This document shows, one piece after another, positions 3,092 to 21,700 of a stretch of 32,000 bases of DNA; the stretch's first letter is position 1; the number at the start of each line of letters is the position of its first letter. A program made the translations under genes and the position numbers. The notes below the pieces were generated by a model. It searched no databases. It saw only the letters and a list, made by a program, of their open reading frames with translations, and was not told the DNA's origin. Source of the DNA: Flavobacteriaceae bacterium. Its GTDB lineage: Bacteria > Bacteroidota > Bacteroidia > Flavobacteriales > Flavobacteriaceae. Where the stretch lies: the NCBI GenBank assembly GCA_965224465.1, contig OZ245049.1, positions 3,030,001 through 3,062,000 on the forward strand. The letters run 5' to 3'.

Positions 3092-6000
3092 ATGTTTTGT
3101 TTTGCTATGATAACAAAAAATAACCAACAGAGACCTTCCGTTAATTCACGTTTAATAAATAACAATCAATCGTATAATCAATGTATAGGTACTGTGTCTT
3201 TACTTGAAACTATAGATGATCGTGAAAAAACGACTGTAAAAACTATTAAATACCAGATATCCAATACAGATTGGGATGCTTTAATAAAGAAAGCTGAAAC
3301 GGATGATATTTTGCCTTTCGCTGTTATTTTAAACACATTTATTCATGTTATAGAGCGATGGAGTTCTTCGTCTAGACTTATTTTGACACCTATTGTGGTT
3401 TCTGATGTAGAAGCGGTTTCATATTTAGAACAATTGTTTTCGCTTAGGAAAGTGCCATGGAATGCCTCTTGTAAGTATTTAGAATCACAAATATTTACCG
3501 ATATAAAGGCTGAAGAGTCTGAAGATGAGGATGCAGGGATTTCTGTTTTTATAACTACAAATCTAGAAGTTACCAGTGCTACGAATAAAGAAAGTGTCGC
3601 GTTATTTTTAAATAATAACGATGAGGTAGCAGTAAAAGGATTGCACTACCAGCTAGAAGAAACCAATGATGGGATAGAAATAAGTTGGACATTTAATCAC
3701 ACTTCTATTTCTGAAGTGTTGTTACAAGAAATGTTTGCGGCACAAATACGTATATTAGATTGGTTGGTACAAGAAAATTGGGACGCCCCTTTATTGGATA
3801 TACTACCCGAGAATCAAAAAAGTATACGAGCTAAAATAAACAATACTCAAACTTTTGTGACAGAAAAATGCTTGCATCAGGAGTTTTTTGAGACTGCTAC
3901 AACGCATAGTGAAAAAACAGCATTAATTTGGGAAGAAGAAGGCAGTGCTATAAAAATAGGATATGGAGATCTAAAAGATAAAGTACTTAGACTGGCATCA
4001 ATATTAGTTAGTAAAAATATACAACAAGGAGATTTTGTAGGGATCACTATTCCAAGAGGACCCAACCAAATTGTTGCAGTATTAGCAGTACTAGCTATTG
4101 GAGCTATTTATGTTCCGATAGGAGTAGATCAACCGAAGTCTCGTCAGAAACGAATTCATCAAATAGCGGGTATTTCGTATGTGATTATGGATGAGGAAGT
4201 TTCAGGATTCACAGGCCTTGATGTGGCTATAATTCAAGTTGCAGAAGAAGCAACAGCAGCTCCTTTGTCTCAACCAATATTTGTAGATCCAAATAAATTG
4301 GCATACGTAATTTTCACCTCAGGATCTACAGGGGAACCTAAAGGCGTAGCAATTTCACACAGTGCTGCTCACAATACAATTCAGGATATAAATAAACGAT
4401 TTTCCGTAACAGAAAAGGACACGGCGCTTGCATTGTCGGCATTGGATTTTGATTTGTCTGTGTATGATATTTTTGGATTATTAGCTGTAGGAGGTACGCT
4501 TGTTATGCTAAATGAAAAAGTAAGGAGAGAAGCTTCCGTGTGGACAAATCTTATTCAGAGTACAGGAGTTACTATTTGGAATTCAGTACCCGCATTGTTA
4601 GAGATGTTACTTAGTACAACTTTAGAAAAAGAACGTCTTGTTTCTTTGCGATTAGTGATGGTCTCTGGAGATTGGGTAGGCTTAGATCTTTTTGAAAGGC
4701 TGCGAAATGTATCACCAGATTCTCTTTTGGTTGCTTTGGGAGGAGCTACAGAGGCTTCTATATGGTCTAATTTTCATAAAGTGACTTATGTTGATCCGAA
4801 ATGGAGTTCTATTCCCTATGGTAAACCGCTAGAAAATCAATGTTTTAGAGTGGTAGATTTGTTTGGTAGGGATTGCCCTGATAGGGTCACGGGGGAATTA
4901 TGGATTGGTGGTATTGGGCTCGCAAAAGGATATTTAGGGCAACCAGATTTAACGGCTGATAAATTTATAACAATGGATAATCAGCGTTGGTATCGTACAG
5001 GTGATTTAGGAAGGTATTGGTCTGATGGTACTTTAGAGTTTCTTGGAAGAAAGGACGATCAGGTAAAATTACGAGGCTACCGAATAGAATTAGGAGAAAT
5101 AGAAGCTTTATTAAAAAAATCATGGGGAGTAGAACAGGCTGTTGCTGCAATTGCATCCATAGAGGGTACGCAGCATTTGGTTGCCGCTGTAGTTTCTGAA
5201 AAAACAGCAACAAATAGTGCGATAGCCGAACCAATAATATCGGAAGAGGTTTTATTATATAGAACAGTTTCAAGAGAAAAACAGGCAGTATCTATAGAAG
5301 TAGTTTTGTTTGAACTACTACATCTTGAAAAACTACTTCAAAACAAAGATGTTTATTGGAATCCGATGGAGCAATTTGAGTTAGCAGAGGAGCATTTGGC
5401 TGTTGTACAACTTTGGTTAGAATGGCTTGTAAAACGACAATTGTTAATGTTGGAAAATAAAACGTATCGTATTGGGAATAGGTTACAGGAAGTTTTTGAA
5501 GCATGGAAAGTAAAAAGTACAGTGTTAGCTACAGATGGAATTGAAGCAAAAGAAGACGTATTTTTAAAAAGGGTACAGAAATGTTTGTTTGAGCGTATTC
5601 CTGATTATTATAAAATTCTTTCGGGAAATATAGCAGCCACAGTGTTATTGGATGATCCTATAATATCTCCAGAGATTTTAGCTACAAAAGATGCTGGAAC
5701 CTTATGGGGAATTCAGGAAATTGCAATAAGAATAAATAAGCTAGCGGTACTAAAAGGGAGGCCAATCCAAGTTGCAGTTTTGGGTGGAAGAACAGGTTTA
5801 ATGACTGCTAGGTTGTTAAAAATATCATCAGCAGCAGAAATTAGCTGTACCCTTCTTGAAACGGCACCCTCTATGATTGAGGCTGCTAAAAAGAATTTAG
5901 AACCTTTCCCAGAAAATGCCTCCTGTTATAGAATTCCCGAGAATAGAATCCCCGAGGAATTGCATTATAAATTTGATGTAGTCTTGGCTATAAATGCATT

Positions 6001-6757
6001 GCACAGGTATAAAGACCCAGAAGAAGGAGTTGCTTTGGCTTCACTATTGGTTGCAAATCAAGGAAAAATAATAGCCTTAGAGCACGGAGAACTTAGTCCA
6101 ATTGCTGTTGTAACTTCTGCCTTGTTGGATAAAGGATACACTGATTTTGACCATCAAAGAAAAGGAATGTGTAGCCCAATGCTAACGGGGCAGGAATGGA
6201 TGAGAATCTTCTCAAAATATGGATATACTAAAATAAGTTGCCATGCAGTTGGTTGCTCTTTTACCGAACTAATAGAAGTTGAATGTCCAGAGGAAAGGAA
6301 AGAAATAAGCTCAGAAACAATAATGGATTATGTATCTCAGCATCTACCAAGTCATATGGTTCCTGAAAAAATTGTTGTATTGCCATGGTTTCCACTCAGT
6401 AAAAACGGAAAAGTGAATCGTTCTGAAATTACCAAATATTTTGATTTTCAAGCCGCATCAACATGTATGGAAGAACCTCATAAGGGAATGGAGCAGGAAA
6501 TTGCGGATATATGGAAAGAACTACTTCATACAGCTGTTATTAGTAGGTATCACAGTTTTTTTCAGATAGGAGGAGATAGTTTGTTGGGAACACGTTTTTT
6601 GACCATTATCAAAGAACGTTTTGAAATAGATGTATCCTTGAGGCAACTATTTGAATTCCCTACGTTGATTGCTGTTGCTGCTATTGTTGAAGAAAAGTAT
6701 AATGTACTAGCGGAACGCATGGAAGAAATGGAAGAAATGGAAGAAGGAGAGATATGA
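3092..6757 (+). CDS. NRPS subunit: C/Cy C-lobe remnant - A(Cys, methyltransferase-like insert) - PCP
   Basis: 1221-aa ORF. A-domain cores are LAYVIFTSGSTGEPKG (A3), FDLSVYDIF (A4), GGATEASIW, YRTGDLGRY (A7), GRKDDQVKLRGYRIELGEIE (A8) and PLSKNGKVNR (A10). A ~365-aa insert sits between A8 and A10. The carrier motif is FFQIGGDSLLG. ATGA overlaps the next gene at 6754-6757. An alternative ATG lies at 3107. Confidence 0.9.
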   Translation: MFCFAMITKNNQQRPSVNSRLINNNQSYNQCIGTVSLLETIDDREKTTVKTIKYQISNTDWDALIKKAETDDILPFAVILNTFIHVIERWSSSSRLILTPIVVSDVEAVSYLEQLFSLRKVPWNASCKYLESQIFTDIKAEESEDEDAGISVFITTNLEVTSATNKESVALFLNNNDEVAVKGLHYQLEETNDGIEISWTFNHTSISEVLLQEMFAAQIRILDWLVQENWDAPLLDILPENQKSIRAKINNTQTFVTEKCLHQEFFETATTHSEKTALIWEEEGSAIKIGYGDLKDKVLRLASILVSKNIQQGDFVGITIPRGPNQIVAVLAVLAIGAIYVPIGVDQPKSRQKRIHQIAGISYVIMDEEVSGFTGLDVAIIQVAEEATAAPLSQPIFVDPNKLAYVIFTSGSTGEPKGVAISHSAAHNTIQDINKRFSVTEKDTALALSALDFDLSVYDIFGLLAVGGTLVMLNEKVRREASVWTNLIQSTGVTIWNSVPALLEMLLSTTLEKERLVSLRLVMVSGDWVGLDLFERLRNVSPDSLLVALGGATEASIWSNFHKVTYVDPKWSSIPYGKPLENQCFRVVDLFGRDCPDRVTGELWIGGIGLAKGYLGQPDLTADKFITMDNQRWYRTGDLGRYWSDGTLEFLGRKDDQVKLRGYRIELGEIEALLKKSWGVEQAVAAIASIEGTQHLVAAVVSEKTATNSAIAEPIISEEVLLYRTVSREKQAVSIEVVLFELLHLEKLLQNKDVYWNPMEQFELAEEHLAVVQLWLEWLVKRQLLMLENKTYRIGNRLQEVFEAWKVKSTVLATDGIEAKEDVFLKRVQKCLFERIPDYYKILSGNIAATVLLDDPIISPEILATKDAGTLWGIQEIAIRINKLAVLKGRPIQVAVLGGRTGLMTARLLKISSAAEISCTLLETAPSMIEAAKKNLEPFPENASCYRIPENRIPEELHYKFDVVLAINALHRYKDPEEGVALASLLVANQGKIIALEHGELSPIAVVTSALLDKGYTDFDHQRKGMCSPMLTGQEWMRIFSKYGYTKISCHAVGCSFTELIEVECPEERKEISSETIMDYVSQHLPSHMVPEKIVVLPWFPLSKNGKVNRSEITKYFDFQAASTCMEEPHKGMEQEIADIWKELLHTAVISRYHSFFQIGGDSLLGTRFLTIIKERFEIDVSLRQLFEFPTLIAVAAIVEEKYNVLAERMEEMEEMEEGEI
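3224..3796 (+). other. Remnant of the C-terminal lobe of a condensation/cyclization domain (no catalytic N-lobe)
   Basis: Residues ~45-235 align with the second half of the Cy domains in this window. ISNTDWDALIKKAETDDILPFAVILNTFIHVIERW matches IDPISWNSFIKSAATKNLTPSAALLTLYTEVLSAW, and GIEISWTFNH matches GVTLSWDTLD. No FPLTxxQxAYxxGR or DxxxxDxxS motif is present, and a stop codon sits at 3086-3088 just upstream. Confidence 0.55.
3854..6427 (+). other. Adenylation domain, cysteine-type code (DLYNMSLIWK by manual extraction)
   Basis: Code positions were read from FDLSVYD (D,L,Y), IWNSVP (N), LVMVSGDW (M,S), ALGGATE (L), EASIW (I,W) and NGKVNR (K). Confidence 0.8.
5204..6301 (+). other. Methyltransferase-like domain inserted in the A domain, atypical SAM motif I
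   Basis: The insert lies between A8 and A10. WLEWLVKRQLLMLENKTYRIG parallels WLDILTKRGYIERLGTGFSMG of the stand-alone MT at 9139-10227. Motif I reads VAVLGGRTGLM instead of ILEIGAGTGAT. LLETAP, FDVVLAINALH and GKIIALEH are retained. Confidence 0.6.
6479..6691 (+). other. Peptidyl carrier protein domain
   Basis: FFQIGGDSLLGTRF contains the phosphopantetheine Ser (residue 1163). It is followed by the acidic tail MEEMEEMEEGEI. Confidence 0.85.
6719..6745 (+). repeat. Perfect 3 x 9-bp tandem repeat (ATGGAAGAA) encoding (MEE)3 in the C-terminal tail
   Basis: Read directly: atggaagaa atggaagaa atggaagaa, immediately before ggagagata tga. Confidence 0.95.
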
Positions 6758-7854
6758 TAGGAATTATAGGGGGCTACGGAGAAGTAGGAATTAATGCGAC
6801 AAGACTGCTTGTAAAATGGAACAAACAACCAATAAAAGTAGGTGGGAGAAACCCTGAAAAAGCAAAAGAAAAGTTCGAAAAAGAATTCCCGGAAGTATCG
6901 TGGGTTTTTGTTAATGTGTCTGATGATAATAGTTTAGAAGCTTTTATTAAGGGCTGTAATGTTGTTGTAAACTGTGTAGGGCCATCACACAAAGTATCTT
7001 CCAGAGTGGCGAAAATATGTTTGTGTCATAGTTGTCACCATATTGATGCAGGTGTAGACAAAGTATTGGAAGGGATGCATAGCATACAGACGGATGTCTC
7101 TATTAGGTATGGAGCAGGAACAACACCTGGTTTAACGGGTATTTTACCACAATGGATGGCGCAAGAACTTGACACTGTAAATTCGTTGATACTGTTTACA
7201 GGAGCTTTGGATCGGTTTACAGTTTCTGGGGCTGAAGATTATCTAGTAGGTGTTTTAGAAGATGCGAATGAACCTTTAGCGGCTTGGAGAAATGGAAAAA
7301 AGAAATCCTCGGTATTAAAAAGACAATCAGGAATAACAGTTCCCTTTTTTCCTAGAGAAGTAACTGTTTTTCCATTTTTTGATACCGAATCTTTAGTGGT
7401 AGCTAGAAACTTAGACCTGATCAATGGAGATTGGAATTTAGTGATTGACGGTACCCATGTGCCAGCGACTTTAAATAGTGTTCGGTCTCATTTTTATAAA
7501 AACCCAAAAGAAGCCATCAAAAAATTGTGCTTAGCAGCAGATTTAGACCTAGCAGGTAGGCAAACATATTTTAACCTTATTGTTCAGTTGGAAGGTGTCA
7601 AAGACAGAAAACCATGCATAAGAACTGCGATTCTACAAATGGATAGGATGTCGGTTTTAACAGGAGCTATAACAGCAATTGCCTGTATTTCTATCGTAGA
7701 AGATAAAGTCCCCTCAGGAATAGGTGCGGTCGCAGAATTACCGCATCCTGAGAGAATTATGGAGCGTCTTATGGCGTATGGAATAGTAACGGATTTTAAA
7801 ATATTAGAAACTTCGATTGCGGATCTGTTAGAAGAAGTAGAAGGCGAATTATAA
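6754..7854 (+). CDS. Saccharopine dehydrogenase-like NAD(P)-binding oxidoreductase
   Basis: 366-aa ORF. It has an N-terminal Rossmann loop IIGGYGEVG (GxGxxG) and the VVNCVGP motif characteristic of the saccharopine dehydrogenase NADP-binding family. It is translationally coupled to the upstream NRPS (ATGA) and ends in LLEEVEGEL. Confidence 0.6.
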   Translation: MIGIIGGYGEVGINATRLLVKWNKQPIKVGGRNPEKAKEKFEKEFPEVSWVFVNVSDDNSLEAFIKGCNVVVNCVGPSHKVSSRVAKICLCHSCHHIDAGVDKVLEGMHSIQTDVSIRYGAGTTPGLTGILPQWMAQELDTVNSLILFTGALDRFTVSGAEDYLVGVLEDANEPLAAWRNGKKKSSVLKRQSGITVPFFPREVTVFPFFDTESLVVARNLDLINGDWNLVIDGTHVPATLNSVRSHFYKNPKEAIKKLCLAADLDLAGRQTYFNLIVQLEGVKDRKPCIRTAILQMDRMSVLTGAITAIACISIVEDKVPSGIGAVAELPHPERIMERLMAYGIVTDFKILETSIADLLEEVEGEL

Positions 7855-7956: not shown

Positions 7957-9021
7957 ATGATACCAAAAAAAATAAAAACTGTAGTCTGCGGTTCTACATT
8001 CGGACAATTTTATCTCGAATCTTTAAAAAAATTACAAAATCAGTTTGATGTCGTTGGTTTACTGTCTCAAGGGAGTGAACGATCTAAGAAGTGTGCAGAA
8101 CAATACGGGCTTCCTTTATTTACGTCTATAGATCAATTGCCAGCAGATTTAGATTTGGCATGTGTTGTCCTTAGATCTGGAGTTATGGGTGGTAATGGGA
8201 CAGAATTATCACTTCAGTTTATAGAAAAAGGAATACATGTCCTACAGGAGCATCCTGTACATCATAAGGATTTAGCATTGTGTCTAAGAGCAGCACAAAA
8301 AAATAAAGTACGATTTCAAACAGGAGATTTATATGTGCATTTACCAGAGGTAAGGCGGTTTATAAATTGCGCAAAAGCATTATTAAAAGAACAAAAAGCA
8401 ACGTATATAGATGTGGCTTATGCATCTCAGGTTTCTTATCCATTAATGCATATTTTATCGGAGGCATTGCCAGGAACCAGGCCTTGGAAAATTGAAAAAA
8501 CCACTAAAACAGAAGGGCCTTTTACAGTATTGACAGGAAGTATAGGGAAAACGCCTATCATTCTTAGAGCTCATAATCAAATAAATCCAGATGATCCAGA
8601 CAATCATCTTCATTTATTACATCGAATTACAATTGGAGTCGAAGGAGGAAGTTTGTCTTTAAATGATACTCACGGTCCCGTAGTATGGCATCCGAGATTG
8701 CATGTTCCAGAAAATTTAGGAAGTATGAAGGAACTTTCAGCTACAAATGCTGCGTACCTTTTAGAGAATAGTGTACAGGTACTTGGCGAGTACTCGCCAA
8801 CTAATTATACGGAGATACTTTCTAAACAATGGCCCTTTGCTATAGGGGAAGATTTACGATCGATTAAAAAAAGCATGGAGACCAAGAAAGGGTTTCAGTT
8901 GAAGTCTCAAAACGAATTATTAGTTTCCATGCAATGGCAGGAGTTGACCAATGCATTGGGATATCCTTCTTTGGTAGCTCAAAGTAGTCATCAACCTTTA
9001 GCTGTTGATATTTTACAACAA
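7957..9021 (+). other. Thiazolinyl imine reductase domain
   Basis: The domain is collinear with my recollection of Irp3 and PchG. Matching strings are VVCGSTFGQFYL (Irp3 IVGAKFGEMYL), VGLLSQGSERS (VGLLAQGSARS), LACVVLRSGVMGGNGT (IACIVVRSTVAGGTGT), IHVLQEHPVH (VHVIQEHPLH), NPDDPDNHLHLLHR (DPDDPDMHSLIMHR) and GPVVWH (GPVIWS). Confidence 0.8.
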
Positions 9022-10230
9022 GCAGCCATGAAAACTCCGTCAACTTATGAACTTCTGAAGGAAAAAGAGGAGCCAAAGGAGTATCGTGAAGAAGATATTT
9101 ACTCCTGTACAGATGTTTCTGATGGTATATTGAAAAACATAACGATACAGCAGGTCAAAAATTTTGTAGACATATTGGATAAAGCTGTTTTGGATTCGAT
9201 GTTGTTTTCGTTGCAAAAACAAGGAATACTAATTGACAAAAATTTGCAGTATACAATATCTGATATTGTATCAGCTGCAAATATTGCTTCAAAGCATAAA
9301 GGGTTAATTACCTATTGGTTGGATATATTGACAAAAAGAGGATATATAGAGAGGTTAGGTACTGGTTTTTCTATGGGTGATGTAGTAATCACCACCGATA
9401 CTTTTAATAGGAGTTGGGGATTTGTCAAGGATGCTTGGAATAATAAATTAGGTGACCCACTAACAATGGAGTATTTGGTGAAAAATGCAGAGCAGTTACC
9501 AGAGCTAATGAATGATACTCAAAAAGCAGCATTATTATTGTTTCCGGAAGGTCGCTTAGATATTGCTAATTCATTATATAGAGATACCATTACAGCAAAA
9601 TATTTAAATGAGTCGGTATCTGAAGCAGTTTATAGAATTGCAAAATATAGGATGTCAAATTCTTCTTCTTTAAAACAGTTAAAAATACTTGAAATTGGTG
9701 CAGGAACTGGTGCAACAACAGTATCTGTAGCTTCAAAATTACAAGAAACTATTGTAAGTTATATTCATGTAGATTATTTGTTTACAGATGTTTCTGATTT
9801 TTTCTTAAACAACGCAAAGCATCTATTAAAAACCTATCGATGGATAAATTTTCAAGCTTTAGATATTGATCAGGATTTTATAGAACAGCAGGTGAAATCA
9901 GAGAGTTTTGATATAATTATTGCTGCAGGAGTTCTTAATAACGCCGAGAATACAGATAAAGTAATTGAACAAATGATGAATTCTTTAATAAAAGGAGGGT
10001 GGTTATTAATCACAGAACCTACAAGAGAATTTTTAGAAATTCTTATATCACAAGCTTTTATGATGACGATGCCAGAAGACGTACGAAAGGAGGAAAAAAC
10101 AACTTTTTTTACACCTTCTCAATGGAGTAACGTATTTAATAAAGCAGGTGCTCAAAAAATAGTTGTCCTACCAAAAGAAGACAATCCATTAACACCTTTT
10201 GAACAAAAATTATTCATTGTAAAAAAATAG
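7957..10230 (+). CDS. Fusion protein: thiazolinyl imine reductase (PchG / Irp3-YbtU family) + class I SAM-dependent methyltransferase
   Basis: 757-aa ORF; see the two domain entries below. Confidence 0.85.
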   Translation: MIPKKIKTVVCGSTFGQFYLESLKKLQNQFDVVGLLSQGSERSKKCAEQYGLPLFTSIDQLPADLDLACVVLRSGVMGGNGTELSLQFIEKGIHVLQEHPVHHKDLALCLRAAQKNKVRFQTGDLYVHLPEVRRFINCAKALLKEQKATYIDVAYASQVSYPLMHILSEALPGTRPWKIEKTTKTEGPFTVLTGSIGKTPIILRAHNQINPDDPDNHLHLLHRITIGVEGGSLSLNDTHGPVVWHPRLHVPENLGSMKELSATNAAYLLENSVQVLGEYSPTNYTEILSKQWPFAIGEDLRSIKKSMETKKGFQLKSQNELLVSMQWQELTNALGYPSLVAQSSHQPLAVDILQQAAMKTPSTYELLKEKEEPKEYREEDIYSCTDVSDGILKNITIQQVKNFVDILDKAVLDSMLFSLQKQGILIDKNLQYTISDIVSAANIASKHKGLITYWLDILTKRGYIERLGTGFSMGDVVITTDTFNRSWGFVKDAWNNKLGDPLTMEYLVKNAEQLPELMNDTQKAALLLFPEGRLDIANSLYRDTITAKYLNESVSEAVYRIAKYRMSNSSSLKQLKILEIGAGTGATTVSVASKLQETIVSYIHVDYLFTDVSDFFLNNAKHLLKTYRWINFQALDIDQDFIEQQVKSESFDIIIAAGVLNNAENTDKVIEQMMNSLIKGGWLLITEPTREFLEILISQAFMMTMPEDVRKEEKTTFFTPSQWSNVFNKAGAQKIVVLPKEDNPLTPFEQKLFIVKK
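9139..10227 (+). other. SAM-dependent methyltransferase domain (intact motif I)
   Basis: Motifs seen are ILEIGAGTGATT (motif I), acidic FTDVS, FQALDIDQD, FDIIIAAGVLNN and KGGWLLITEP. The N-terminal helical part (WLDILTKRGYIE) resembles NRPS-embedded MT domains. Confidence 0.8.
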
Positions 10231-10233
10231 AAA

Positions 10234-10956
10234 ATGTTGAAATGCAGTCACATATTATGTAAGGTTGATAATATTAAAGCCGTTGTTAAAGATTATGAAT
10301 CTCAAGGGTTTTCTTTGGTCTGGGGGAGTACTCCAGAAAAAGCTCATAATGCCTTATTATGGTTTGAAGAAGGTCCTTATATCGAGTTTTTTCAGTTGCC
10401 GAAAAAGTTTGAAATCTTAAAGTATCCCTTACAATTGTTTTATGGTCGATCCGTTGGAAGGAGGTGGGAGAAATGGGCAAAAGCTACAGAAGGCTGGTGT
10501 GATATAGCATTGGAACCAGCTGAATTTAAAACAGGTTTTAGCCAACATTCACAGGAGTATCCATTAGATATAAAAACAATAAAGAAAGCCTTACAGGTTT
10601 CTGGGATTTCATCTTCTAGGATTGTCCGTAAAAAAAGAGTAAGTCCAGAAGGGGAAGAGGTGAAATTCAGTGTTTTTTGTCCAGATCAAGAGGGATTTCC
10701 TTTTGTTTTTTCTGGGTATAAAACGTCACAACGACCTTTGGAAATAAAACATCCGAATGGAGCTAAAAAAGTAGCATGGGTAAAAGTAGGGGTGAACCCT
10801 AAGGACATCACACAATTTAAGAAGCTAATTAAAGAGGATACATTTATTAAAACAGAAGAGCACATACAAACACATGTTTGTAATGTGGGGCTCGTAGGTT
10901 TGCAATCCAACTTAGATCCAAAATTTTTGCACGGCGCTGTATTTACAGCATTATAA
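10234..10956 (+). CDS. VOC / glyoxalase-like domain protein (function in the pathway unknown)
   Basis: 240-aa ORF. HILCKVDNIKAVVKDYESQGFSLVWG ... AHNALLWFEEGPYIEFFQ resembles the Glyoxalase-like (PF13468-type) pattern H.v..v.dl...GF....G...GT.Nal..f.dg.YlEl. The call rests on memory of the family pattern only. Confidence 0.4.
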   Translation: MLKCSHILCKVDNIKAVVKDYESQGFSLVWGSTPEKAHNALLWFEEGPYIEFFQLPKKFEILKYPLQLFYGRSVGRRWEKWAKATEGWCDIALEPAEFKTGFSQHSQEYPLDIKTIKKALQVSGISSSRIVRKKRVSPEGEEVKFSVFCPDQEGFPFVFSGYKTSQRPLEIKHPNGAKKVAWVKVGVNPKDITQFKKLIKEDTFIKTEEHIQTHVCNVGLVGLQSNLDPKFLHGAVFTAL

Positions 10957-10975: not shown

Positions 10976-13900
10976 ATGTTATCAACTACTACAAATGCCA
11001 CCTTAGATTTACTAGTAAGACTTAGAAAAGACGGAATTAAACTTTGGGAAGAAAACGGAAAATTAAAGTTTAAAGCACCCAAAGGGCTCCTTCAACCAGA
11101 AGATCTGGAAGCGCTAAAAAAATATAAAACAGAGGTAATTGAACAATTAAAATTAGAAAGTAAATCAATTACTGTAGTTGTAAATCCAGCTTCAAAATTT
11201 GATCCTTTTCCATTAACAGATGTACAGTCAGCTTACTTGTTGGGGCGTAACGAAGTATTTGATTATGGAGGTGTTGCCTGCCATATTTATTTAGAATTAA
11301 AATATTCACATTTAGAAAAAAAGAGGGTACAAGAGGTTTGGGAAATGCTTATTTCTAGGCATGAAATGTTAAGAGCAACTATAGATAAAGAAGGACATCA
11401 ACGTATTATGGAGTTTCATCCAGAATTCGAATTAACGTATACAGATGCGAGCACTTGGACAGAAAAGGAAAAGGATGTAGCCTTAGATGAAATTCGGGAG
11501 GATATGGGGCACCGTGTTTATGACACTTCTAGTTGGCCTTTGTTTGGAATAGGAGTGACTCAAACATCAGAAGATGCTATTCTTCATTTCTCTATGGAAT
11601 TTTTGATTGCAGACTGGGCGAGTATCTGGTTGCTCTTGTCAGAGTTCGAAGCTCTTTATACATCTTTAGAGACACCTTTACCTAAGTTAAACCTTAGTTT
11701 TAGAGATTATTTGATTGCAGAAAGAGGACTGAGAGAAACCATGTCTTATGCAAAAGATAAACGCTATTGGTTGGATCGAATTCACAGTTTACCAGCAGCA
11801 CCAGATCTTCCTTTAGCAAGAGCACATAAACCTTCTGGAAAAGGACGTTTTACACGTCGTTTTATGGAATTAGAGATGTCTGAATGGCAACGGATAAAAG
11901 AACAGAGTCAACAATTGGGATTAACACCAACAACTGTTATTATGACTGCCTATGCAGCGGTTATAGAGCGCTGGAGTCGCACAAAAAAGTTTTGTTTAAA
12001 TCTTACGGTATTAAACCGATTGCCTTTGCATGAAGATGTAAATATTATTGTAGGAGATTTTACATCGGTCAGTTTATTAGAGGTGGATTGGAGTACGGAT
12101 CAATCGTTTAAAGAACGTGCAAAAACCTTAAATAATCAGTTGTTTGATGATTTAGATCACCGTTTATTCTCGGGTGTTGAGGTGATGAGAGAAATTGTTA
12201 GACAGAGAGGTAGGGATGCAGCTCTTATGCCGTATGTGTTTACGAGTGCTATTGGACTGACAAATGCTGGAGAAGGAAATCAAAGAAAAGGAAAATTAGG
12301 CGGATATGGAATAAGTCAAACGCCGCAGGTATTTATAGATTGTCAGGCAATGGATACCCCAGGAGGCTTGCATATCAATTGGGATATTAGAGCGGGTGTT
12401 TTTCCAGATGATCTGATCGATGATATGTTTAATGCATTCAAGGGATTACTACAAAATTTAGTGACAAAAGACGCGACTTGGAAAGAGAATGTTTGTATTG
12501 ATATACCAAAATGGCAAGAATTGGAAAGGCAGGTAATTAATAATACACAAGCCCCTTTATCAAACAACGTGTTGCATAAAAAAATTGTAGAGCAGATCGT
12601 AAAAACACCAGATGCACCAGCAGTTTTTGATTCTGAAGGACAAACAACGTATCGAGAACTTGGATTAAAAGCAAGCGCAGTGTCCGAAGCGTTGGAGACT
12701 TTAGGATGTAAGGCGCAGGATAAAGTGGTTATTTCTATGGATAAGGGAGTGGGTCAGGTTATTTCTGTATTAGGTGTTTTGTCAACGGCTGCGGTTTATG
12801 TACCGATAGATGTGTTTCAGCCTACCGAGAGAATAAATGCCATGATAGCACATGCGGATATTCGTTTTGTGATTACAGATAAGAAAAATAAAACCAAATG
12901 GGCAGCGCATATCCATGTAATTTATATAGATGAATTAGAACTAAAAACCGAAATCACCTTAAAAACTACGGCAGATCCGACCTTGCCTGCGTATGTAATT
13001 TATACTTCAGGTTCTACAGGGCAACCAAAAGGAGTGGTGATTAATCACATCGCTGCTCTAAATACGATTGCTGCTATTAACAAGCAGTTTCTTGTGCAGC
13101 CCCAAGACAGCGTATTAGGTCTTTCGCAATTAGGTTTTGATTTATCAGTATTTGATATTTTTGGAGTACTCTCTGTTGGAGGAGCGATTGTTTATCCTGA
13201 ACAAGAACGGAAAAACGACCCTTCACATTGGGTAGCATTGATTCAGAAATACGACGTTACTATTTGGAATACAGTACCAGCTTTAATGCAAATGTTAGCT
13301 ACCTATTTACTTACAGAAACCAATATCAAAATACCAAAATTAAGACTGGCATTGCTTTCTGGAGATTGGATTCCGTTAACATTACCCGATATTTTAGTGA
13401 AACGCTTGCCACAGCTAGAGGTAATTAGCCTTGGAGGTGCAACAGAGGCATCTATTTGGTCCATTTATCATATTTATAAAGGATTAGAATCGGATTGGAA
13501 TAGTATTCCTTATGGTAGGCCTTTAACAAATCAAGGGTTTAGAGTACTGGATAGTACCCTAAGAGATTGCCCTGTTTGGACAATCGGAGAATTGTTTATT
13601 ACAGGGGATGGACTGGCTGATGGATATTTAAACGAGATCGCATTGACAAAAAAGTCGTTTTTTAATCACCCTGTAGATGGGCAACGGATGTATCGTACTG
13701 GAGATTTAGGACGCTATACTCCAGGAGGAGAAATAGAATTCTTAGGGCGTGAGGATAATCAAGTTAAAATAAGAGGACATCGTATAGAATTAGGAGAGAT
13801 AGAATCTGCATTGTTAAAACATCCAAAAGTTAGTGCAGTAGGAGTTGTGGCAGATGGTTCTGGGCAAGAGAAATCTTTATTAGGAGTGGTAGAACTTATG

Positions 13901-15916
13901 CATAAAGATAAGCTTGCAAAGAAAAAAGGAAAGGAGAGTGGCAAAAAAATACGGGATGAGGTAAGTGAAAAAATTAAGAATTTTAATACAGAAGAAAATA
14001 GAGAAGCGGATAAGTATGCTGATTATCTAGGTTTAATCCTACAGACAATAGGTAAAAATAATTCAGAGAACCATCCTCTTCGAATACTACAAATAGGAGA
14101 GAAAGGAAAAGAAAATTTGGATGCAGTTGTACAACATTTAGAGGGTATATCTTTTGAGTATCTATATACGCATTCTGACATTGCTGTTTTAAAAGAATTT
14201 TCATTAAAGTACGCAGAGGAAGAGGGCATTAGATTTGAAGTTTTTGATAGTAATATAGCCTACAGGACACAAGGATTTGAGCCCAATAGTTTTGATATTA
14301 TTATTGCGATAGGGTTGGTAGCTAATAGAACTATTGTAAAAGAATTAATTCGTGCAAACGGTTGGTTTGTTAATGGTATAGAAAATACGGATTCTTCTTT
14401 AGTGATAACAGATACAAAATTAAAGGTGCCAGAACATAAATTATTTCTAACGCAGGTAAAAGAAGACCAATATTTTGTAAGTGCCTCAGAGCTGTCTCGT
14501 TTTTTATCGAAACATGTTCCAGAATATATGATTCCCAGCCATCTTCAGGTTGTAGATACATTACCAATTACCAAAAACGGAAAAATGGATCGTAAAACTA
14601 TTGCAAAGTGGAGACCTTATCATGTAAATGGAGCGATCATTGGGAGTACAGATCACGCCTTAGATACCTTAGAAATTGCATTGTCAAAACAATGGGCTGA
14701 TGCGTTAAATATGAAAGGGATAGGTAGATTACAAAATTTTTATGACTTAGGAGCAGATTCTTTGATTATGGCTAAGATGGCAGGAGAATTAAGAGATGCC
14801 TTGGCAAAAGAAACGCCTCCTGTAAAGATTGCTTATGATGCGCTATTGAGACAGATGTTAAACTTCCCTACAATAGCTGGGCTGGCAAATTTTATCAGAT
14901 CAAAAAAAGAAGGGGCAGATGCTCTTTGTAGTACAGCAACACAGGAAGATGGAGATAGTACTTCTGCAAGTAATGGGGTACTGACTTCTTATGGAAATAG
15001 TAATAACGGATTACTTCGTGTAGTGTTTCATGCAGGAATAGGTACAATGAATTGTTTTCTTCCATTGTTAGGAGAATTAGAGAAACAGAATTTAGGCCCA
15101 ATTGTAGGTATTACGGTGAAGGACACGGAAGTGTATTGTGATTTAGAACCAGAGGAATTGATAGAATTGGTTGCGGAAGATTACGCCACACGATTATTAG
15201 AAACGGGACATAAAAAAATGCAGTTGATAGGCTATTGTATGGGAGGTCAGTTTGCCATTGAAGTTGCAAGACGTTTGGTAGAAAATGGAATAGAAATCGT
15301 AGACCTTGTATTGGTAGATAGTCATCCTGTATATATAGATGTGAAAGATGACCTGGTTATAGAATCATTATTTGTTCCTAACCTAGGAGTTTCTATGGAA
15401 CAAGCTGGTTTTGGTGGGGCTGATCCAATGGATATTGGGAGCGCATTTATGCATATTATAGCAGAAAATAAAGGAGTGATTCCTAATGGCTCACCGGGGA
15501 AACTTACGGGAGATAAAGGCATGGAAGCGGTGAGTACTTTATTTAAAAAACTTTCATCTTTTGATATGAGAACGCGTTTTACAGCTTATGTAAATGCTAT
15601 TTATGATGTGACTGGAGAAAAAATGGAAGTAGAAATGGCAGAGGGCTTATTTAGAATGTACCGCCAGAGTTATATTGCTTCTCAATTTATTCCACTTCCA
15701 TATATGGGGGACATACGGTTTCTAATCGCTACGGGACAATCTGGGTTTTTACCAGGGACAGTGAAAAAAACAATCGATTGCTGGACCAATGCTTGTCTTG
15801 GAGAATTGACTGTTATGGAAATTAAAGGAGATCACTTTACATGTATAGAACCTCCTCATTTAGCACATTTGGCAACAATTATTAGAGAACCTCTTCTTAT
15901 TCCAATAGAGTCTTAG
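10976..15916 (+). CDS. Terminal NRPS: beta-hairpin docking domain - Cy - A(Cys, vestigial MT insert) - PCP - TE
   Basis: 1646-aa ORF; motifs are listed in the domain entries below. Confidence 0.92.
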   Translation: MLSTTTNATLDLLVRLRKDGIKLWEENGKLKFKAPKGLLQPEDLEALKKYKTEVIEQLKLESKSITVVVNPASKFDPFPLTDVQSAYLLGRNEVFDYGGVACHIYLELKYSHLEKKRVQEVWEMLISRHEMLRATIDKEGHQRIMEFHPEFELTYTDASTWTEKEKDVALDEIREDMGHRVYDTSSWPLFGIGVTQTSEDAILHFSMEFLIADWASIWLLLSEFEALYTSLETPLPKLNLSFRDYLIAERGLRETMSYAKDKRYWLDRIHSLPAAPDLPLARAHKPSGKGRFTRRFMELEMSEWQRIKEQSQQLGLTPTTVIMTAYAAVIERWSRTKKFCLNLTVLNRLPLHEDVNIIVGDFTSVSLLEVDWSTDQSFKERAKTLNNQLFDDLDHRLFSGVEVMREIVRQRGRDAALMPYVFTSAIGLTNAGEGNQRKGKLGGYGISQTPQVFIDCQAMDTPGGLHINWDIRAGVFPDDLIDDMFNAFKGLLQNLVTKDATWKENVCIDIPKWQELERQVINNTQAPLSNNVLHKKIVEQIVKTPDAPAVFDSEGQTTYRELGLKASAVSEALETLGCKAQDKVVISMDKGVGQVISVLGVLSTAAVYVPIDVFQPTERINAMIAHADIRFVITDKKNKTKWAAHIHVIYIDELELKTEITLKTTADPTLPAYVIYTSGSTGQPKGVVINHIAALNTIAAINKQFLVQPQDSVLGLSQLGFDLSVFDIFGVLSVGGAIVYPEQERKNDPSHWVALIQKYDVTIWNTVPALMQMLATYLLTETNIKIPKLRLALLSGDWIPLTLPDILVKRLPQLEVISLGGATEASIWSIYHIYKGLESDWNSIPYGRPLTNQGFRVLDSTLRDCPVWTIGELFITGDGLADGYLNEIALTKKSFFNHPVDGQRMYRTGDLGRYTPGGEIEFLGREDNQVKIRGHRIELGEIESALLKHPKVSAVGVVADGSGQEKSLLGVVELMHKDKLAKKKGKESGKKIRDEVSEKIKNFNTEENREADKYADYLGLILQTIGKNNSENHPLRILQIGEKGKENLDAVVQHLEGISFEYLYTHSDIAVLKEFSLKYAEEEGIRFEVFDSNIAYRTQGFEPNSFDIIIAIGLVANRTIVKELIRANGWFVNGIENTDSSLVITDTKLKVPEHKLFLTQVKEDQYFVSASELSRFLSKHVPEYMIPSHLQVVDTLPITKNGKMDRKTIAKWRPYHVNGAIIGSTDHALDTLEIALSKQWADALNMKGIGRLQNFYDLGADSLIMAKMAGELRDALAKETPPVKIAYDALLRQMLNFPTIAGLANFIRSKKEGADALCSTATQEDGDSTSASNGVLTSYGNSNNGLLRVVFHAGIGTMNCFLPLLGELEKQNLGPIVGITVKDTEVYCDLEPEELIELVAEDYATRLLETGHKKMQLIGYCMGGQFAIEVARRLVENGIEIVDLVLVDSHPVYIDVKDDLVIESLFVPNLGVSMEQAGFGGADPMDIGSAFMHIIAENKGVIPNGSPGKLTGDKGMEAVSTLFKKLSSFDMRTRFTAYVNAIYDVTGEKMEVEMAEGLFRMYRQSYIASQFIPLPYMGDIRFLIATGQSGFLPGTVKKTIDCWTNACLGELTVMEIKGDHFTCIEPPHLAHLATIIREPLLIPIES
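10988..11149 (+). other. TubC_N-type (beta-hairpin) N-terminal docking domain
   Basis: LDLLVRLRKDGIKLWEENGKLKFKAPKGLLQPEDLEALKKYKTEVIEQL fits the G(V/I)xLWxExGxLxxxAPxGxLxxxL pattern of the TubC/EpoB N-terminal docking domains. Confidence 0.7.
11198..12490 (+). other. Heterocyclization (Cy) domain 3 with ExxxxDxxS variant motif
   Basis: FPLTDVQSAYLLGR is present, and SQTPQVFIDCQ follows later. The catalytic-site motif reads EFLIADWAS (E208, codon gaa at 11597-11599) instead of DxxxxDxxS. Confidence 0.85.
12563..14605 (+). other. Adenylation domain, cysteine-type code (DLFNLSLIWK by manual extraction)
   Basis: Cores are AYVIYTSGSTGQPKG, FDLSVFDIF, IWNTVPAL, LALLSGDW, SLGGATEASIW, YRTGDLGRY, GREDNQVKIRGHRIELGEIE and PITKNGKMDRK. 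Confidence 0.8.
13898..14470 (+). other. Vestigial methyltransferase core inserted between A8 and A10 (SAM loop ablated)
   Basis: ILQIGEKGKE stands where ILEIGAGTGA is expected. YTHSD, FEVFDSNI, FDIIIAIGLV and ANGWFV mirror FTDVS, FQALDIDQ, FDIIIAAGVL and KGGWLL of the intact MT at 9139-10227. The insert is only ~190 aa. Confidence 0.5.
14657..14890 (+). other. Peptidyl carrier protein domain
   Basis: FYDLGADSLIMAKM contains Ser1262. Confidence 0.85.
15008..15895 (+). other. Type I thioesterase domain with cysteine at the nucleophile position
   Basis: The nucleophile elbow is GYCMGG (ggc tat tgt atg gga ggt, 15230-15247), where GxSxG is expected. LVLVDSH (Asp) and GDHFTCIE (His) are conserved. 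Confidence 0.8.
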
Positions 15917-18799: not shown

Positions 18800-21700
18800 T
18801 TAGTGGTTGCTTTTTTCAAGTTGAGGGATCTCTATATATTGATCCCAGTCTTCCAGTGCTATAAATTGATGTAGCATATTTTCATAGGTACGAACCATCT
18901 CTTCGATCCACTTGTTTTCAAATACGTTATCTACAATATCCCAGTTGATATGAATGGAGCCATTTCGTTCATATACCTGATGATCCATTGCTACTTGTGG
19001 CGTTTGACTAATGGCAAATACTTCTTTTAGTTCTGGTGGGTAATGGGTGTTTTTTTCTTGAGTTTCACCAAACAGTAAACTGGTAAATACGATGGGCATT
19101 AAGGCTTTTCCAGGACTGTCTTTTCCTAATCTTTTTAAAATATCCATTCCATCCTGAGTTCGATATTCTACAGCTTTCCATAGCTGTTGCTGTACCGTTT
19201 CAATTTCTTCTAGGATTGTTTTGTTATCATTTTTAAAATAAGAAATCAAGGTAACATTTGTAAAGTCTCCAAGGATTTTAGGAACATCTTTATGAATTGG
19301 AAACCTATTGAAAATAGTAAGGTTTATGGTGAAATCAGGATTTGTACTCCAGTGAGCTAGTACCTTCATAAAAATAGTACATATTACCGCAGAAGGAGTA
19401 AATCTATATTGTTTTATTTTGGAGAATAATTGTGTTGATTTTTCTGTATCCAATACAATTTTCCAACGTTTAAAAAATGGTTTTTCGATGTCTTTAAAAG
19501 CTGTTTTAAGAGGTAGGTTTGGAGCAGGGGGAATTTGTTTTATATGTGCATTCCAAAATTGTTGCGCTTCCGAGATATTACTTTGCGTATGCAGCCATTT
19601 TTCTTCTTGATTCATGTATTCTTTGAATGTGAATTTTGGGGTCGCAATTTCCTTTCCATAATAAGAAGCAAAAAGTTCTTGTACAACCATTTCTGTACTC
19701 GAAGCATCTAATAATAGACAGTCAAAACTGAAGTGTATTCTAGAAATATCAGTGCCTATCTGACTTAATTGAAGGTGAAACATAGGCCAGGTTCCAAGTT
19801 GGTAATTATGGTGAGACCATTTATTTCGAATAGTTTCTAATGCTTGTTCTGATTGTATTTGTCTTACAGGAATTGTAAAGAAAGGAACTTTTTTCATTAA
19901 TTGTTGGCTGGCATTACTGTACACTTTTGTACGTAACATCTCATGTCTTTTGATCACACCATTCCAAGCGTGTTCTAAACGTTTTGGATCCAACTGATGA
20001 CATTCTAACTCTAGGTAATAATGCGTGTTGATGTTTCCAATTTCAAAATTAGAGGACCTTCCAAATAAGTATGCTAATTGTATAGGTGTTAATTTAAAAG
20101 GTTGATATTTTCTAAGGATATGAGTAACTTGCTCCTGTTTTTTTGGTTGGATTAAAACGTGTAAAAGAGCATTTTTAGAAGCTTTTATTTTTTCTAACAA
20201 TGTTTTTGAGAGTGCGCCTTTGGGGGCTTTAAATTTCAATTTCCCTTCTTTCACATAAAGTAAGATCTCCTTATCTTTACATGTATTTAAAATAGCATCA
20301 CATGTTTTTAGAGAATCTTTATCTGCTGTTGTGTCACTGCGTAATTGTAGTTGTTCTATTTCCTGCGCAAAATCTATTTTCCCTCCTGCCATGGTGTGTA
20401 GGTAGAATTGATGAATAGAAAGGTTAAAAGACGCTTTTATTTCGTCAAAATCGTACGCTGTTAATGATGAACATCCAATATTTAAAGAAGGTGATTTACT
20501 CTCTAATAACTGACTTAGGATTCCGCTTTCTATAAAACAAATTTGTAAAGATTTGTCTTGATGGATAGGGTAGACTGCATTTAGGTCTGCAACAAAATGG
20601 ACTAAGAAGGAAGTGTTAGGCATCATGTTTCTAAAAGAAATAGATGCTATTTCTGTGATATTCCCTAACTTTATTAGAGAATGTGCCTGTACGTCTAGGT
20701 AATAGTTCCCTTGTTCGATCCCTTCAATACCTTTGTTAAAAATAGTGAGATAGGTTTGTATAGGGTAGGTTTCGCTTAGAGAATTGTAGTTGTAGCTTTT
20801 TTCTCCATAAATATTTTGTTGCAAACAGAAAGAAATAAATTTTTTGAAATTTAGATTTTCAATAGGGGAGTTTAGATAGTTGTTAAAACTATTCGTGATT
20901 GTTCCTAAAGGATTTTTTTCTTCTAAAGGAAGGTCTAAAGAAATGCTATTTTGTAATGATAAATCAGTTCTGTGTGCGCTTATAGTTTCCTTAAAGGAAA
21001 TGTATTCTTCATAATTTTCTATGGTGGTGATATTGTTTAGATATGCTTTCTGTTCTGTAGAATACAGACTAAATGGCGATGCTGCCTTGTCTGAAGGGAT
21101 CTCTTTTTCTTCAAAAGAAAATCCTTTATCGTCATAGTATGCTATAAGTTGCTTTATAGATGAATACCGAATCATTTCTCCTACAGAAGGTCTCTCTGTA
21201 AAGTGTATTTCTAACTCGTTCGCTAATTTTATCATGGCGACAGAAGAAACTCCCAAATCGGAAAAATTATCTTTAGACTTTAATTTAGGAAGTCCTAAAA
21301 TGTTTTTTATTAGGTTTAGTACAGGGTGATGCTCTTCTGCGGTATTTGAAGATATAGGTGTATTGTCACTGTTGTATTTATGATAGTATTTCAATAATTT
21401 TTTTCTGTCTACTTTTCCATTAGCACTCATCGGATAAACATCTAAACAGAGAATTTTTTCAGGTATAAAATAGTCAGGGAGCTGTGTTTTTAAGTGCATT
21501 TTGAGTTCCGTTTCAGAAAATTCTGAAGCAGGACATTTTACAAAAGCAATTAGTTTTTTATGCTCCATCTTGTCTCCAATGGGGATAATTATTGGATCGG
21601 TATTTGTTGCGTATTTTCTGAAAGCTGCTTGTATTTCTCCTATTTCTACGCGGTATCCATTTATTTTTAGCTGTGTATCTTTTCGACCTAGAAATTCGAT

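Follow-up and report, generated by a model that had tools for sequence, protein, structure and literature searches.

Putative Docking Motifs on a Carrier Subunit and a Stand-Alone Reductase in a Hybrid PKS-NRPS Cluster of a Flavobacteriaceae Bacterium

Docking Motifs and Trans-Acting Reductases

The subunits of nonribosomal peptide synthetases (NRPS), and of hybrid lines with polyketide synthases (PKS), can be held together by small β-hairpin docking (βHD) domains, which bind the C-terminal end of a partner protein. TubB-TubC, EpoA-EpoB, Kj12A/B/C, Bamb_5917-Bamb_5915, and PcdC-PcdK all rely on the same receptor fold (TubC_N) and on the same C-terminal ligand pattern, Φ-charged-G-E-Φ (Φ, hydrophobic residue), a short linear docking motif (SLiM). 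Both elements are found in a 32,000-nucleotide stretch of DNA from a Flavobacteriaceae bacterium (assembly GCA_965224465.1, contig OZ245049.1, positions 3,030,001 to 3,062,000; hereafter, the window), which has a G+C content of 35% and is most closely related to Aquimarina aquimarini and A. hainanensis. It harbors a hybrid PKS-NRPS cluster of the thiazoline peptide type, in which two βHDs accompany two proteins with SLiM-like tails: a subunit made of an adenylation domain with a methyltransferase (MT) and a peptidyl carrier protein (A(MT)-PCP), and a stand-alone saccharopine-dehydrogenase-like (SDH-like) oxidoreductase. While SLiM/βHD docking is already established (TubC, EpoB, Kj12, enacyloxin, and romidepsin-type lines), what is new here is the reductase as a putative client.

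The recognition rule is known from the nuclear magnetic resonance (NMR) structure of the Kj12C/Kj12B complex, where binding is confined to the final five SLiM residues, L-R-G-E-I, which join β2 as a third strand. Their glycine rests on Y27, their glutamate and arginine form pairs with R24 and E28, respectively, and both hydrophobic residues are buried; a K28-containing dock binds the R-to-E variant L-E-G-E-I at 13 µM (PMC6195595). SLiMs have been reported after PCP, acyl carrier protein (ACP), and heterocyclization (Cy) domains, and after ‘oxidases’, while βHDs also occur on tailoring enzymes and one SLiM can serve several βHDs (PMC9113145). For example, the halogenase AerJ, the stand-alone condensation (C) domain Bamb_5915, and MT, thioesterase (TE), and reductase (R) domains (PMC9113145) are trans-acting enzymes brought to the line by a SLiM/βHD pair, as proposed here. 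Nevertheless, the polarity is reversed. In the known cases, the enzyme bears the βHD and takes the carrier SLiM, whereas the window enzyme bears the SLiM and would take a synthetase βHD, for which it apparently competes with the carrier.

The window reductase belongs to the same Pfam family, and lies in the same neighborhood (Irp3-like reductase and methyltransferase(s)), as SrbE (sorangibactin), a coelibactin homologue, MchE (mupirochelin), EqbM (equibactin), and CKL_1509. The papers on this group (PMC10127202, PMC10080011, PMC3672683) mention neither a C-terminal motif nor docking, and these proteins are assigned to the tailed subfamily by annotation only, as is the SrbE/EqbM/MchE type of the window enzyme. 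Sorangibactin contains tandem N-methyl-thiazolidines, its cluster has the same SDH-like, Irp3-like, and glyoxalase-like trio as the window, and SrbE has been called indispensable, with an unknown function (PMC10127202). PchG and Irp3 (YbtU), of family TIGR01761, are trans-acting NADPH reductases as well, operating on PCP-tethered thiazolines, and one of this type is encoded next door to the window reductase; they differ from the tailed enzyme by their fold, which is GFO/IDH/MocA instead of saccharopine reductase-like. A link to PchK/Sven0516, the genetically essential thiazoline reductase of the enantio-pyochelin and watasemycin pathways, could not be established, as the papers give no fold family and the Streptomyces locus found (L045) is a different cluster.

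It is still largely a puzzle how tailoring enzymes acting in trans locate the right carrier-bound intermediate of an NRPS. Kosol et al. reportedly collected, in 2019, more than 1400 SLiM-βHD pairs, including SLiMs that follow oxidases. This mention of ‘oxidases’ aside, the literature searched describes no SLiM on a stand-alone SDH-like reductase, and assigns no docking motif to this reductase family.

Two Tails and Two Docking Domains

The SDH-like reductase (366 aa, 6754-7854, plus strand; Pfam PF03435 Sacchrp_dh_NADP, E 2.2e-10) ends in ..LLEEVEGEL, of which E-V-E-G-E-L-COOH (7834-7851, +) forms the SLiM-like tail. The A(MT)-PCP carrier subunit (1221 aa, 3092-6757, +; Pfam AMP-binding, Methyltransf_12, and PP-binding, the latter at aa 1135-1197) ends in ..AERMEEMEEMEEGEI, immediately before its stop codon; its C-terminal residues are also given as MEEMEEMEEGEI. 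Its SLiM, M-E-E-G-E-I-COOH (6737-6754, +), is encoded by codons overlapping the reductase start (ATGA). Among the 54 open reading frames (ORFs) of at least 60 aa in the window, these are the only two proteins ending in EGE[IL], exactly as the original prediction stated, while 0.002 would be expected by chance. The last five residues, E-E-G-E-I for the carrier and V-E-G-E-L for the reductase, fit the rule Φ/charged-charged-G-charged-Φ.

For the carrier, this arrangement is ordinary. M-E-E-G-E-I is the consensus of 29 PCP-ending subunits in related loci (with the glycine in 100% of them), and it sits 24 aa past the PCP, on a linker of variable length across orthologues. By homology to the Kj12 complex, we infer that it is a canonical SLiM. 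The hand-over from this carrier to the Cy domain of the terminal NRPS (Cy3), at 6757/10976, is a standard example of the pairs known from NRPS and PKS-NRPS lines. Unlike those lines, the window has a second SLiM on a stand-alone NAD(P)H reductase, and one of its βHDs is internal to a 2871-aa protein. While the carrier tail belongs to an A(MT)-PCP, that of the reductase is borne by a free-standing 366-aa oxidoreductase, which is neither a PCP/ACP nor an assembly-line domain, and this is the point of novelty.

Both docks predicted in the window, one of them internal, were recovered with the Pfam TubC_N profile (PF18563, cut-off 26 bits), and both are genuine βHD domains. That of the terminal NRPS (10991-11158, +) matches at aa 11-59 (nt ~11006-11152) with 55.7 bits, and the internal βHD of the megasynthase (aa ~2366-2422, 20150-20320, minus strand) at aa 2375-2423 (nt ~20147-20293, -) with 40.8 bits. 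The former is N-terminal, as expected for this domain class; the latter begins near aa 2366 of 2871 and is N-terminal in its stand-alone homologues only. Over its entire length, the dock of the terminal NRPS can be aligned to the solved βHDs of AerJ (8aqq, E 1e-7), TubC (2jug), Kj12B-NDD (6ewt), Bamb_5915 (6cgo), and EpoB (5t7z). Within its β2 strand, K29-L-K-F32-K33 (11060-11074, +), residues K29, F32, and K33 correspond to Kj12 positions 24, 27, and 28, occupied by K24, Y27, and K28 in Kj12B-NDD. Both window docks are of the K24/F27/K28 type, with a basic K-L-K-F-K strand, for which the two window tails would be, by analogy, the expected ligand.

The two docks share the peptide GKLKFKAPKG (11057-11086, +, and 20216-20245, -), with five of its ten codons differing, always synonymously, as had been noted. 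The weight originally placed on this decapeptide is not supported. A jackhmmer search over the related loci gave 47 dock matches, of which 46 have a complete hairpin, and all 46 read x-L-[KR]-[FY]-[KR]-A-P, typically LWeEdGKL[KR][FY][KR]AP[KQ]G. Position 24 is K or R in 42/46, position 27 is F or Y in 46/46, and position 28 is K or R in 45/46. GKLKFKAPKG is, therefore, the hairpin consensus of the family and not a private code, and its presence in both docks carries no special message about the window pair. The synonymous differences show no more than an ancient paralogy of the two docks, maintained by ordinary purifying selection.

The same holds for the perfect 3 × 9-bp repeat at 6719-6745 (+), correctly described in the original prediction, in which ATGGAAGAA occurs three times and encodes (MEE)3 in the acidic linker ahead of the carrier SLiM. 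The carrier orthologues of the two nearest relatives, ending in ..LELMEEGEI for A. aquimarini (L040; EESLELMEEGEI) and in ..MELMEEGEI for A. hainanensis (L001; CETMELMEEGEI), are each 3 aa shorter in the repeat region, i.e., have one unit fewer. The repeat is, therefore, a one-unit expansion confined to the window genome, and its number was rejected as a functional variable, not being conserved even inside the genus.

Fold of the Reductase and Conservation of Its Tail

The AlphaFold2 (AF2) model of the reductase has an overall predicted local distance difference test (pLDDT) score of 92.9, while the last six residues are at about 60 and devoid of secondary structure. Its best Foldseek matches are carboxyspermidine dehydrogenase (8deb/8h4z), saccharopine reductase (1e5l/1ff9), and lysine dehydrogenase (3abi), with E-values down to 5e-22 and TM-scores of 0.70-0.78. 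Together with the Pfam match, these hits give the enzyme the N-terminal NAD(P)-binding Rossmann domain and the two-domain architecture of its family. This is a Schiff-base/imine-reducing fold family and, from the fold and the cluster chemistry, NAD(P)H-dependent reduction of a thiazoline C=N bond is presumed. The enzyme itself gives no TIGR01761 or GFO_IDH_MocA/Irp3-like_C match, unlike its neighbor at 7957-10230.

Tails that differ between orthologous clusters would, by the original prediction, have refuted it, and this is decisively not what the comparison shows for the reductase. Nearly all of 40 homologues retrieved by word index end in E-E-G-x-[ILF]. A HMMER search against 1.84 billion representatives gave 511 family members with E <1e-30 (the family counts at least 500 clusters at 50% identity, in several phyla), and tail statistics were drawn from 293 pooled sequences. 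The pattern [ED]G.[ILVMF] ends 236/293 of these, and the relaxed G.[ILVMF] 267/293, so that roughly 80-90% of these enzymes, in numerous phyla, retain the tail. The consensus is E-E-G-[EAV]-[LI], with 2.6, 2.9, 3.7 (G in 92%), 1.7, and 2.9 bits of information over the last five positions. Positions -5 to -11 have less than 1.1 bits each; the roughly ten residues before the tail are unconserved and of variable length. SLiMs are marked by just this combination, a conserved end carried by a flexible linker that varies, and the reductase tail displays it. The control was provided by the Irp3-like, type II thioesterase (TEII), terminal NRPS, glyoxalase, and MATE proteins encoded in these loci, which total 0.7-4.1 bits over their final five residues, against 13.5 bits for the reductase; the Irp3-type proteins, at 2.3 bits, lack a conserved C-terminal tail.

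A profile scan with one genome per species yielded 37 loci, spanning Bacteroidota, Bacillota, Actinomycetota, Desulfobacterota, Fibrobacterota, Aminicenantia, Aerophobetes, and Pseudomonadota. In about 30 of them, from at least eight phyla, two proteins end in [ED]-[EI]-G-x-[ILV]-COOH: the reductase and the PCP-ending subunit feeding the βHD module, which may be of the A(MT)-PCP type or a larger NRPS. The strict motif ends 49 of 2136 ORFs, against 0.6 expected, and all 49 are reductases or PCP-ending subunits, one of them being a frameshifted fragment of the L019 PCP subunit without a BLAST label. Every full-length (~21 kb) locus, about 30 in all, has at least one βHD and encodes a βHD-Cy unit. 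In a single locus (L035), the NRPS lacks a βHD and the reductase lacks the tail. From these comparisons, the reductase half of the finding is a well-supported and testable lead to the role of this enzyme family.

The Internal Docking Domain

The megasynthase (2871 aa, 18800-27415, -) has the organization ketosynthase (KS)-acyltransferase (AT)-ACP-Cy-A-PCP-Ox-TubC_N-Cy, where Ox is a SagB-type oxidase domain and the internal βHD lies between Ox and the last Cy domain, Cy2 (18857-20095, -; Pfam Condensation, aa 2441-2853). Cy2 has no A-PCP of its own and must use a carrier in trans. The AF2 model of the βHD-Cy unit, built with 16 stand-alone homologues, shows an α-β-β-α-α dock (H7-22, E26-30, E33-37, H45-53, H55-63; pLDDT 81-88), after which come a linker of pLDDT <50 and the Cy domain.

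Eleven Bacteroidota megasynthases, 39-47% identical to the window protein, were compared by majority-residue conservation; as they are mostly from related Flavobacteriia, the comparison is not fully independent. The hairpin reaches 0.85, the Cy domain 0.75, and the Ox domain 0.66, while the flanking linkers are at 0.44-0.63. In this alignment, the Tenacibaculum orthologue (L011) is gapped over the last ~20 residues ahead of the internal dock.

The closest homologues of the window βHD-Cy2 are free-standing βHD-Cy proteins of 470-521 aa from Clostridia and Ruminococcus, and Clostridia, Fibrobacter, and Ruminococcus encode the unit separately. Stand-alone βHD-Cy proteins also occur in L022, L024, L034, and L042, where a tailed A-PCP, a βHD-NRPS, and a tailed reductase are encoded as well. 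In Ruminococcus flavefaciens (L041), the sole βHD in view is that of a stand-alone Cy protein, and the sole tailed protein is the reductase, encoded directly after the Cy gene; the large NRPS of this locus ends in ..DDILASGE, and no tailed carrier is in view.

As the donor PCP of Cy2 is fused in cis and the hairpin is still under selection, the internal dock is best understood as a landing site for a client in trans, which may be the reductase or the A(MT)-PCP acceptor; the latter corresponds to the shuttle originally suggested, in which one carrier would serve Cy2 as acceptor and then Cy3 as donor. The earlier proposal of a trans partner for this dock is a plausible one, given the conserved hairpin and the stand-alone βHD-Cy proteins found elsewhere. 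The nearest precedent is Bamb_5915/Bamb_5917, where a trans-acting βHD-C enzyme docks a stand-alone PCP-SLiM.

In both fused and stand-alone βHD-Cy proteins, a [DE]-W-[DE] motif is semi-conserved a few residues ahead of the C-terminus (for example, ..EDWDQYIE.., ..DDWQKID.., ..KDWEKVD, ..GEWDV, and ..DSWDQII..). It is located at 18800-18856 (-) in the window, and in the proteins encoded at L022 17680-19122, L024 17485-19068, L034 5339-6748, and L041 10001-11485. Since the literature reports SLiMs after Cy domains, it may be a second docking element.

Proposed Mechanism and Alternative Explanations

The explanation that we favor, and hold to be reasonably probable, is that the reductase is recruited to a βHD by SLiM mimicry, with a functional internal βHD and no pair-specific code. 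By homology to the Kj12 complex, the carrier SLiM M-E-E-G-E-I would add a β-strand to the hairpin of the terminal NRPS βHD, with G(-2) packed against the position-27 aromatic, E(-3) paired with K28, and E(-1) with K24, and the docked carrier would present its PCP as the donor to Cy3. From its conservation and the synteny, the reductase tail V-E-G-E-L would tether the enzyme to βHD-Cy2 or βHD-Cy3, where it probably takes turns with the carrier by means of weak and rapidly exchanging contacts. Such sharing is compatible with the micromolar fast exchange and the SLiM promiscuity reported for this docking class. An imine-reducing enzyme would thereby be held near the PCP-bound thiazoline just made by Cy, alongside the Irp3-type reductase. 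One may speculate that each reductase serves one ring, by analogy with sorangibactin, which has two thiazolidines and two reductase types. The internal βHD would be functional, and most likely recruits the SLiM-bearing A(MT)-PCP acceptor or the reductase. The broader proposition, that SLiM mimicry is the general recruitment device of this trans-acting reductase family and that βHDs, including internal ones, are multi-client hubs instead of mere subunit-ordering devices, seems to us evenly poised.

Several observations weigh against recruitment of the reductase by a βHD. The tail is lost or degraded beside a βHD-NRPS in L038 (..REASRD), L043 (..QQECFI), L028 (..EEEVW), and L033 (..EECTL) and is, therefore, not obligatory. 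The SLiM of the FR-901375 line is dispensable in vivo (PMC13324335), which means that even a conserved SLiM need not be essential. Many loci have two tails and one βHD within 21 kb, so that the tails would have to share or compete for the dock. No co-variation beyond phylogeny was found between tail positions -1/0 and dock positions 24/26/28 or the post-hairpin loop. Lastly, tail codons double as an SD-like (Shine-Dalgarno-like) GGAG and an overlapping ATGA/GTGA start in the window (6743-6757, +) and in L003-L010, L021-L025, and L030-L032. With dock position 28 basic in nearly all docks and tail position -3 being E or D in ~83%, tails and docks look interchangeable. The original interpretation is supported in part: it stands for the genuine docks, the canonical carrier SLiM, and the conserved reductase tail, and finds no support in three elements, namely the docking code between specific pairs (both docks being K-L-K-F-K, and tails not co-varying with docks), the decapeptide, and the MEE repeat.

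The overlap of tail and start codons raises the question of whether the tail is only the protein shadow of an RNA signal, with GAR-GGN-GAR as the Shine-Dalgarno (SD) sequence and NTA-TGA/CTG-TGA as the overlapping, coupled start. The window carrier does end in GAA GGA GAG ATA TGA, with GGAG inside and the reductase ATG overlapping; ATA TGA ends 17 of 34 carriers, and many Bacillota and actinobacterial reductase genes end in xTA TGA or CTG TGA, overlapping the Irp3-like start. In such Bacillota-type loci, the tail codons serve as the SD sequence and the start of the next gene, a second constraint. A codon-by-codon test, however, led to the rejection of a ribosome-binding or overlapping-start origin as the main cause, and we consider it very improbable. 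The motif is kept in the uncoupled window reductase (TTA TAA, the next gene starting 100 nt on) and in the uncoupled reductases of L001, L011-L018, and L020, while those of L029 and L034 have their own SD sequence in the spacer. The uncoupled cases with the motif intact include eight Flavobacteriia loci and Sphingobacterium, with TAA stops and gaps of 11-25 nt, and the carriers of L002, L003, and L011 are uncoupled too. Moreover, glycine is encoded by all four of its codons and glutamate by both, and SD-dependent initiation is largely absent from Bacteroidota. Selection, therefore, acts on the tail peptide, the RNA signal being an extra constraint in coupled loci. The tail could also be conserved for a reason intrinsic to the enzyme, as an active-site or cofactor lid or an oligomer contact, its likeness to the carrier SLiM being coincidental. 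C-terminal segments are often lids in Rossmann-type enzymes, most members of this large family have the tail, and its low pLDDT is compatible with ordering upon ligand binding or oligomerization. Yet, AF2 leaves the tail undocked on the enzyme, the ten or so preceding residues vary in sequence and length as they would in a tether, the pattern equals the experimentally defined βHD ligand, and a matching five-residue pattern terminates the PCP-bearing subunits encoded alongside, but no further class of proteins. This makes an intrinsic role unlikely.

A docking role with another receptor, such as the Irp3-type reductase (in a two-reductase complex), a Cy domain, or a PCP, is something we also judge to be unlikely. 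It would account more easily for loci with two tails and a single visible βHD, and an SDH-like gene is succeeded by an Irp3-like one in almost every locus, often with ATGA coupling. The tail, however, fits the βHD ligand rule residue by residue, and the same-tailed carrier has a known partner class in the βHDs, while we know of no precedent for a receptor of the other kinds. With respect to the internal βHD, it might be an inert relic of the fusion between a subunit ending in PCP-Ox and a βHD-Cy subunit, leaving the N-terminal dock as the only functional one. Such a fusion did occur, as the separate βHD-Cy proteins of Clostridia, Fibrobacter, and Ruminococcus indicate, and with the donor PCP now in cis, the classical need for docking is gone. 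We nevertheless regard a relic as improbable: the hairpin is better conserved than the linkers and even the Cy domain, its ligand-contact residues K-L-K-F-K are intact, and AF2 folds the dock confidently, on a flexible linker.

If the reductase is indeed recruited by a βHD, a portable five-residue tag tethering it to the dock would be a simple answer, for a widespread family called indispensable but of unknown function, to the question of how such enzymes find their substrate. βHDs would then be seen as hubs, with several clients competing or alternating. For engineering, this would provide a minimal tag to recruit foreign tailoring enzymes to chosen modules. It would also be a warning, as SLiM or βHD swaps may unintentionally evict a tailoring enzyme.

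Other Features of the Cluster

Downstream of the SDH-like reductase gene, the gene at 7957-10230 (+; TIGR01761, 289 bits; Pfam GFO_IDH_MocA, Irp3-like_C, and MT) encodes a fusion of a methyltransferase with a thiazolinyl imide reductase of the Irp3/PchG type. In nearly all of the 37 loci, an Irp3-like gene comes after the SDH-like one, and the stop codon of the first often overlaps the start of the second; the two reductases probably act as a pair. Next come a Glyoxalase_3-like protein (10234-10956, +; Pfam PF13468), SrbJ-like by annotation, and the terminal NRPS (10976-15916, +), organized as βHD(TubC_N)-Cy-A(MT)-PCP-TE.

At the N-terminus of the carrier subunit, aa 55-254 (3254-3853, +) form a degenerate Cy C-lobe, with 23% identity to aa 298-526 of the terminal NRPS (E 2e-9). 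This remnant is missed by Pfam and absent from shorter orthologues (900-1000 aa). It suggests that the carrier subunit descends from a full Cy-A-PCP module, with cyclization having shifted to a separate or fused βHD-Cy2. In the megasynthase, the Ox domain is a SagB-type flavin mononucleotide (FMN) dehydrogenase (20294-21115, -; aa ~2100-2370; TIGR03605, E 7e-11), located between the PCP and the internal βHD, implying that the first ring would be a thiazole.

The orthologous cluster of Alkalilimnicola ehrlichii (L019, 2373-20957) seems decayed or poorly assembled: its carrier and terminal NRPS are fragmented over a number of overlapping ORFs, and the reductase ends in an altered tail, ..TVGGEV. 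An apparent Rosetta-stone MT-PCP-TE-SDH fusion on a metagenome contig (L039, 151-3234; P0085) was discarded as most likely a frameshift or assembly artefact, since, at its junction, a truncated TE match is followed by ~200 aa of Arg-rich, out-of-frame sequence, and then by a normal SDH start motif. Finally, the window cluster encodes a fatty acyl-AMP ligase (FAAL)-ACP protein (27418-29535, -), a MATE exporter, a phosphopantetheinyl transferase (PPTase), and a type II thioesterase.

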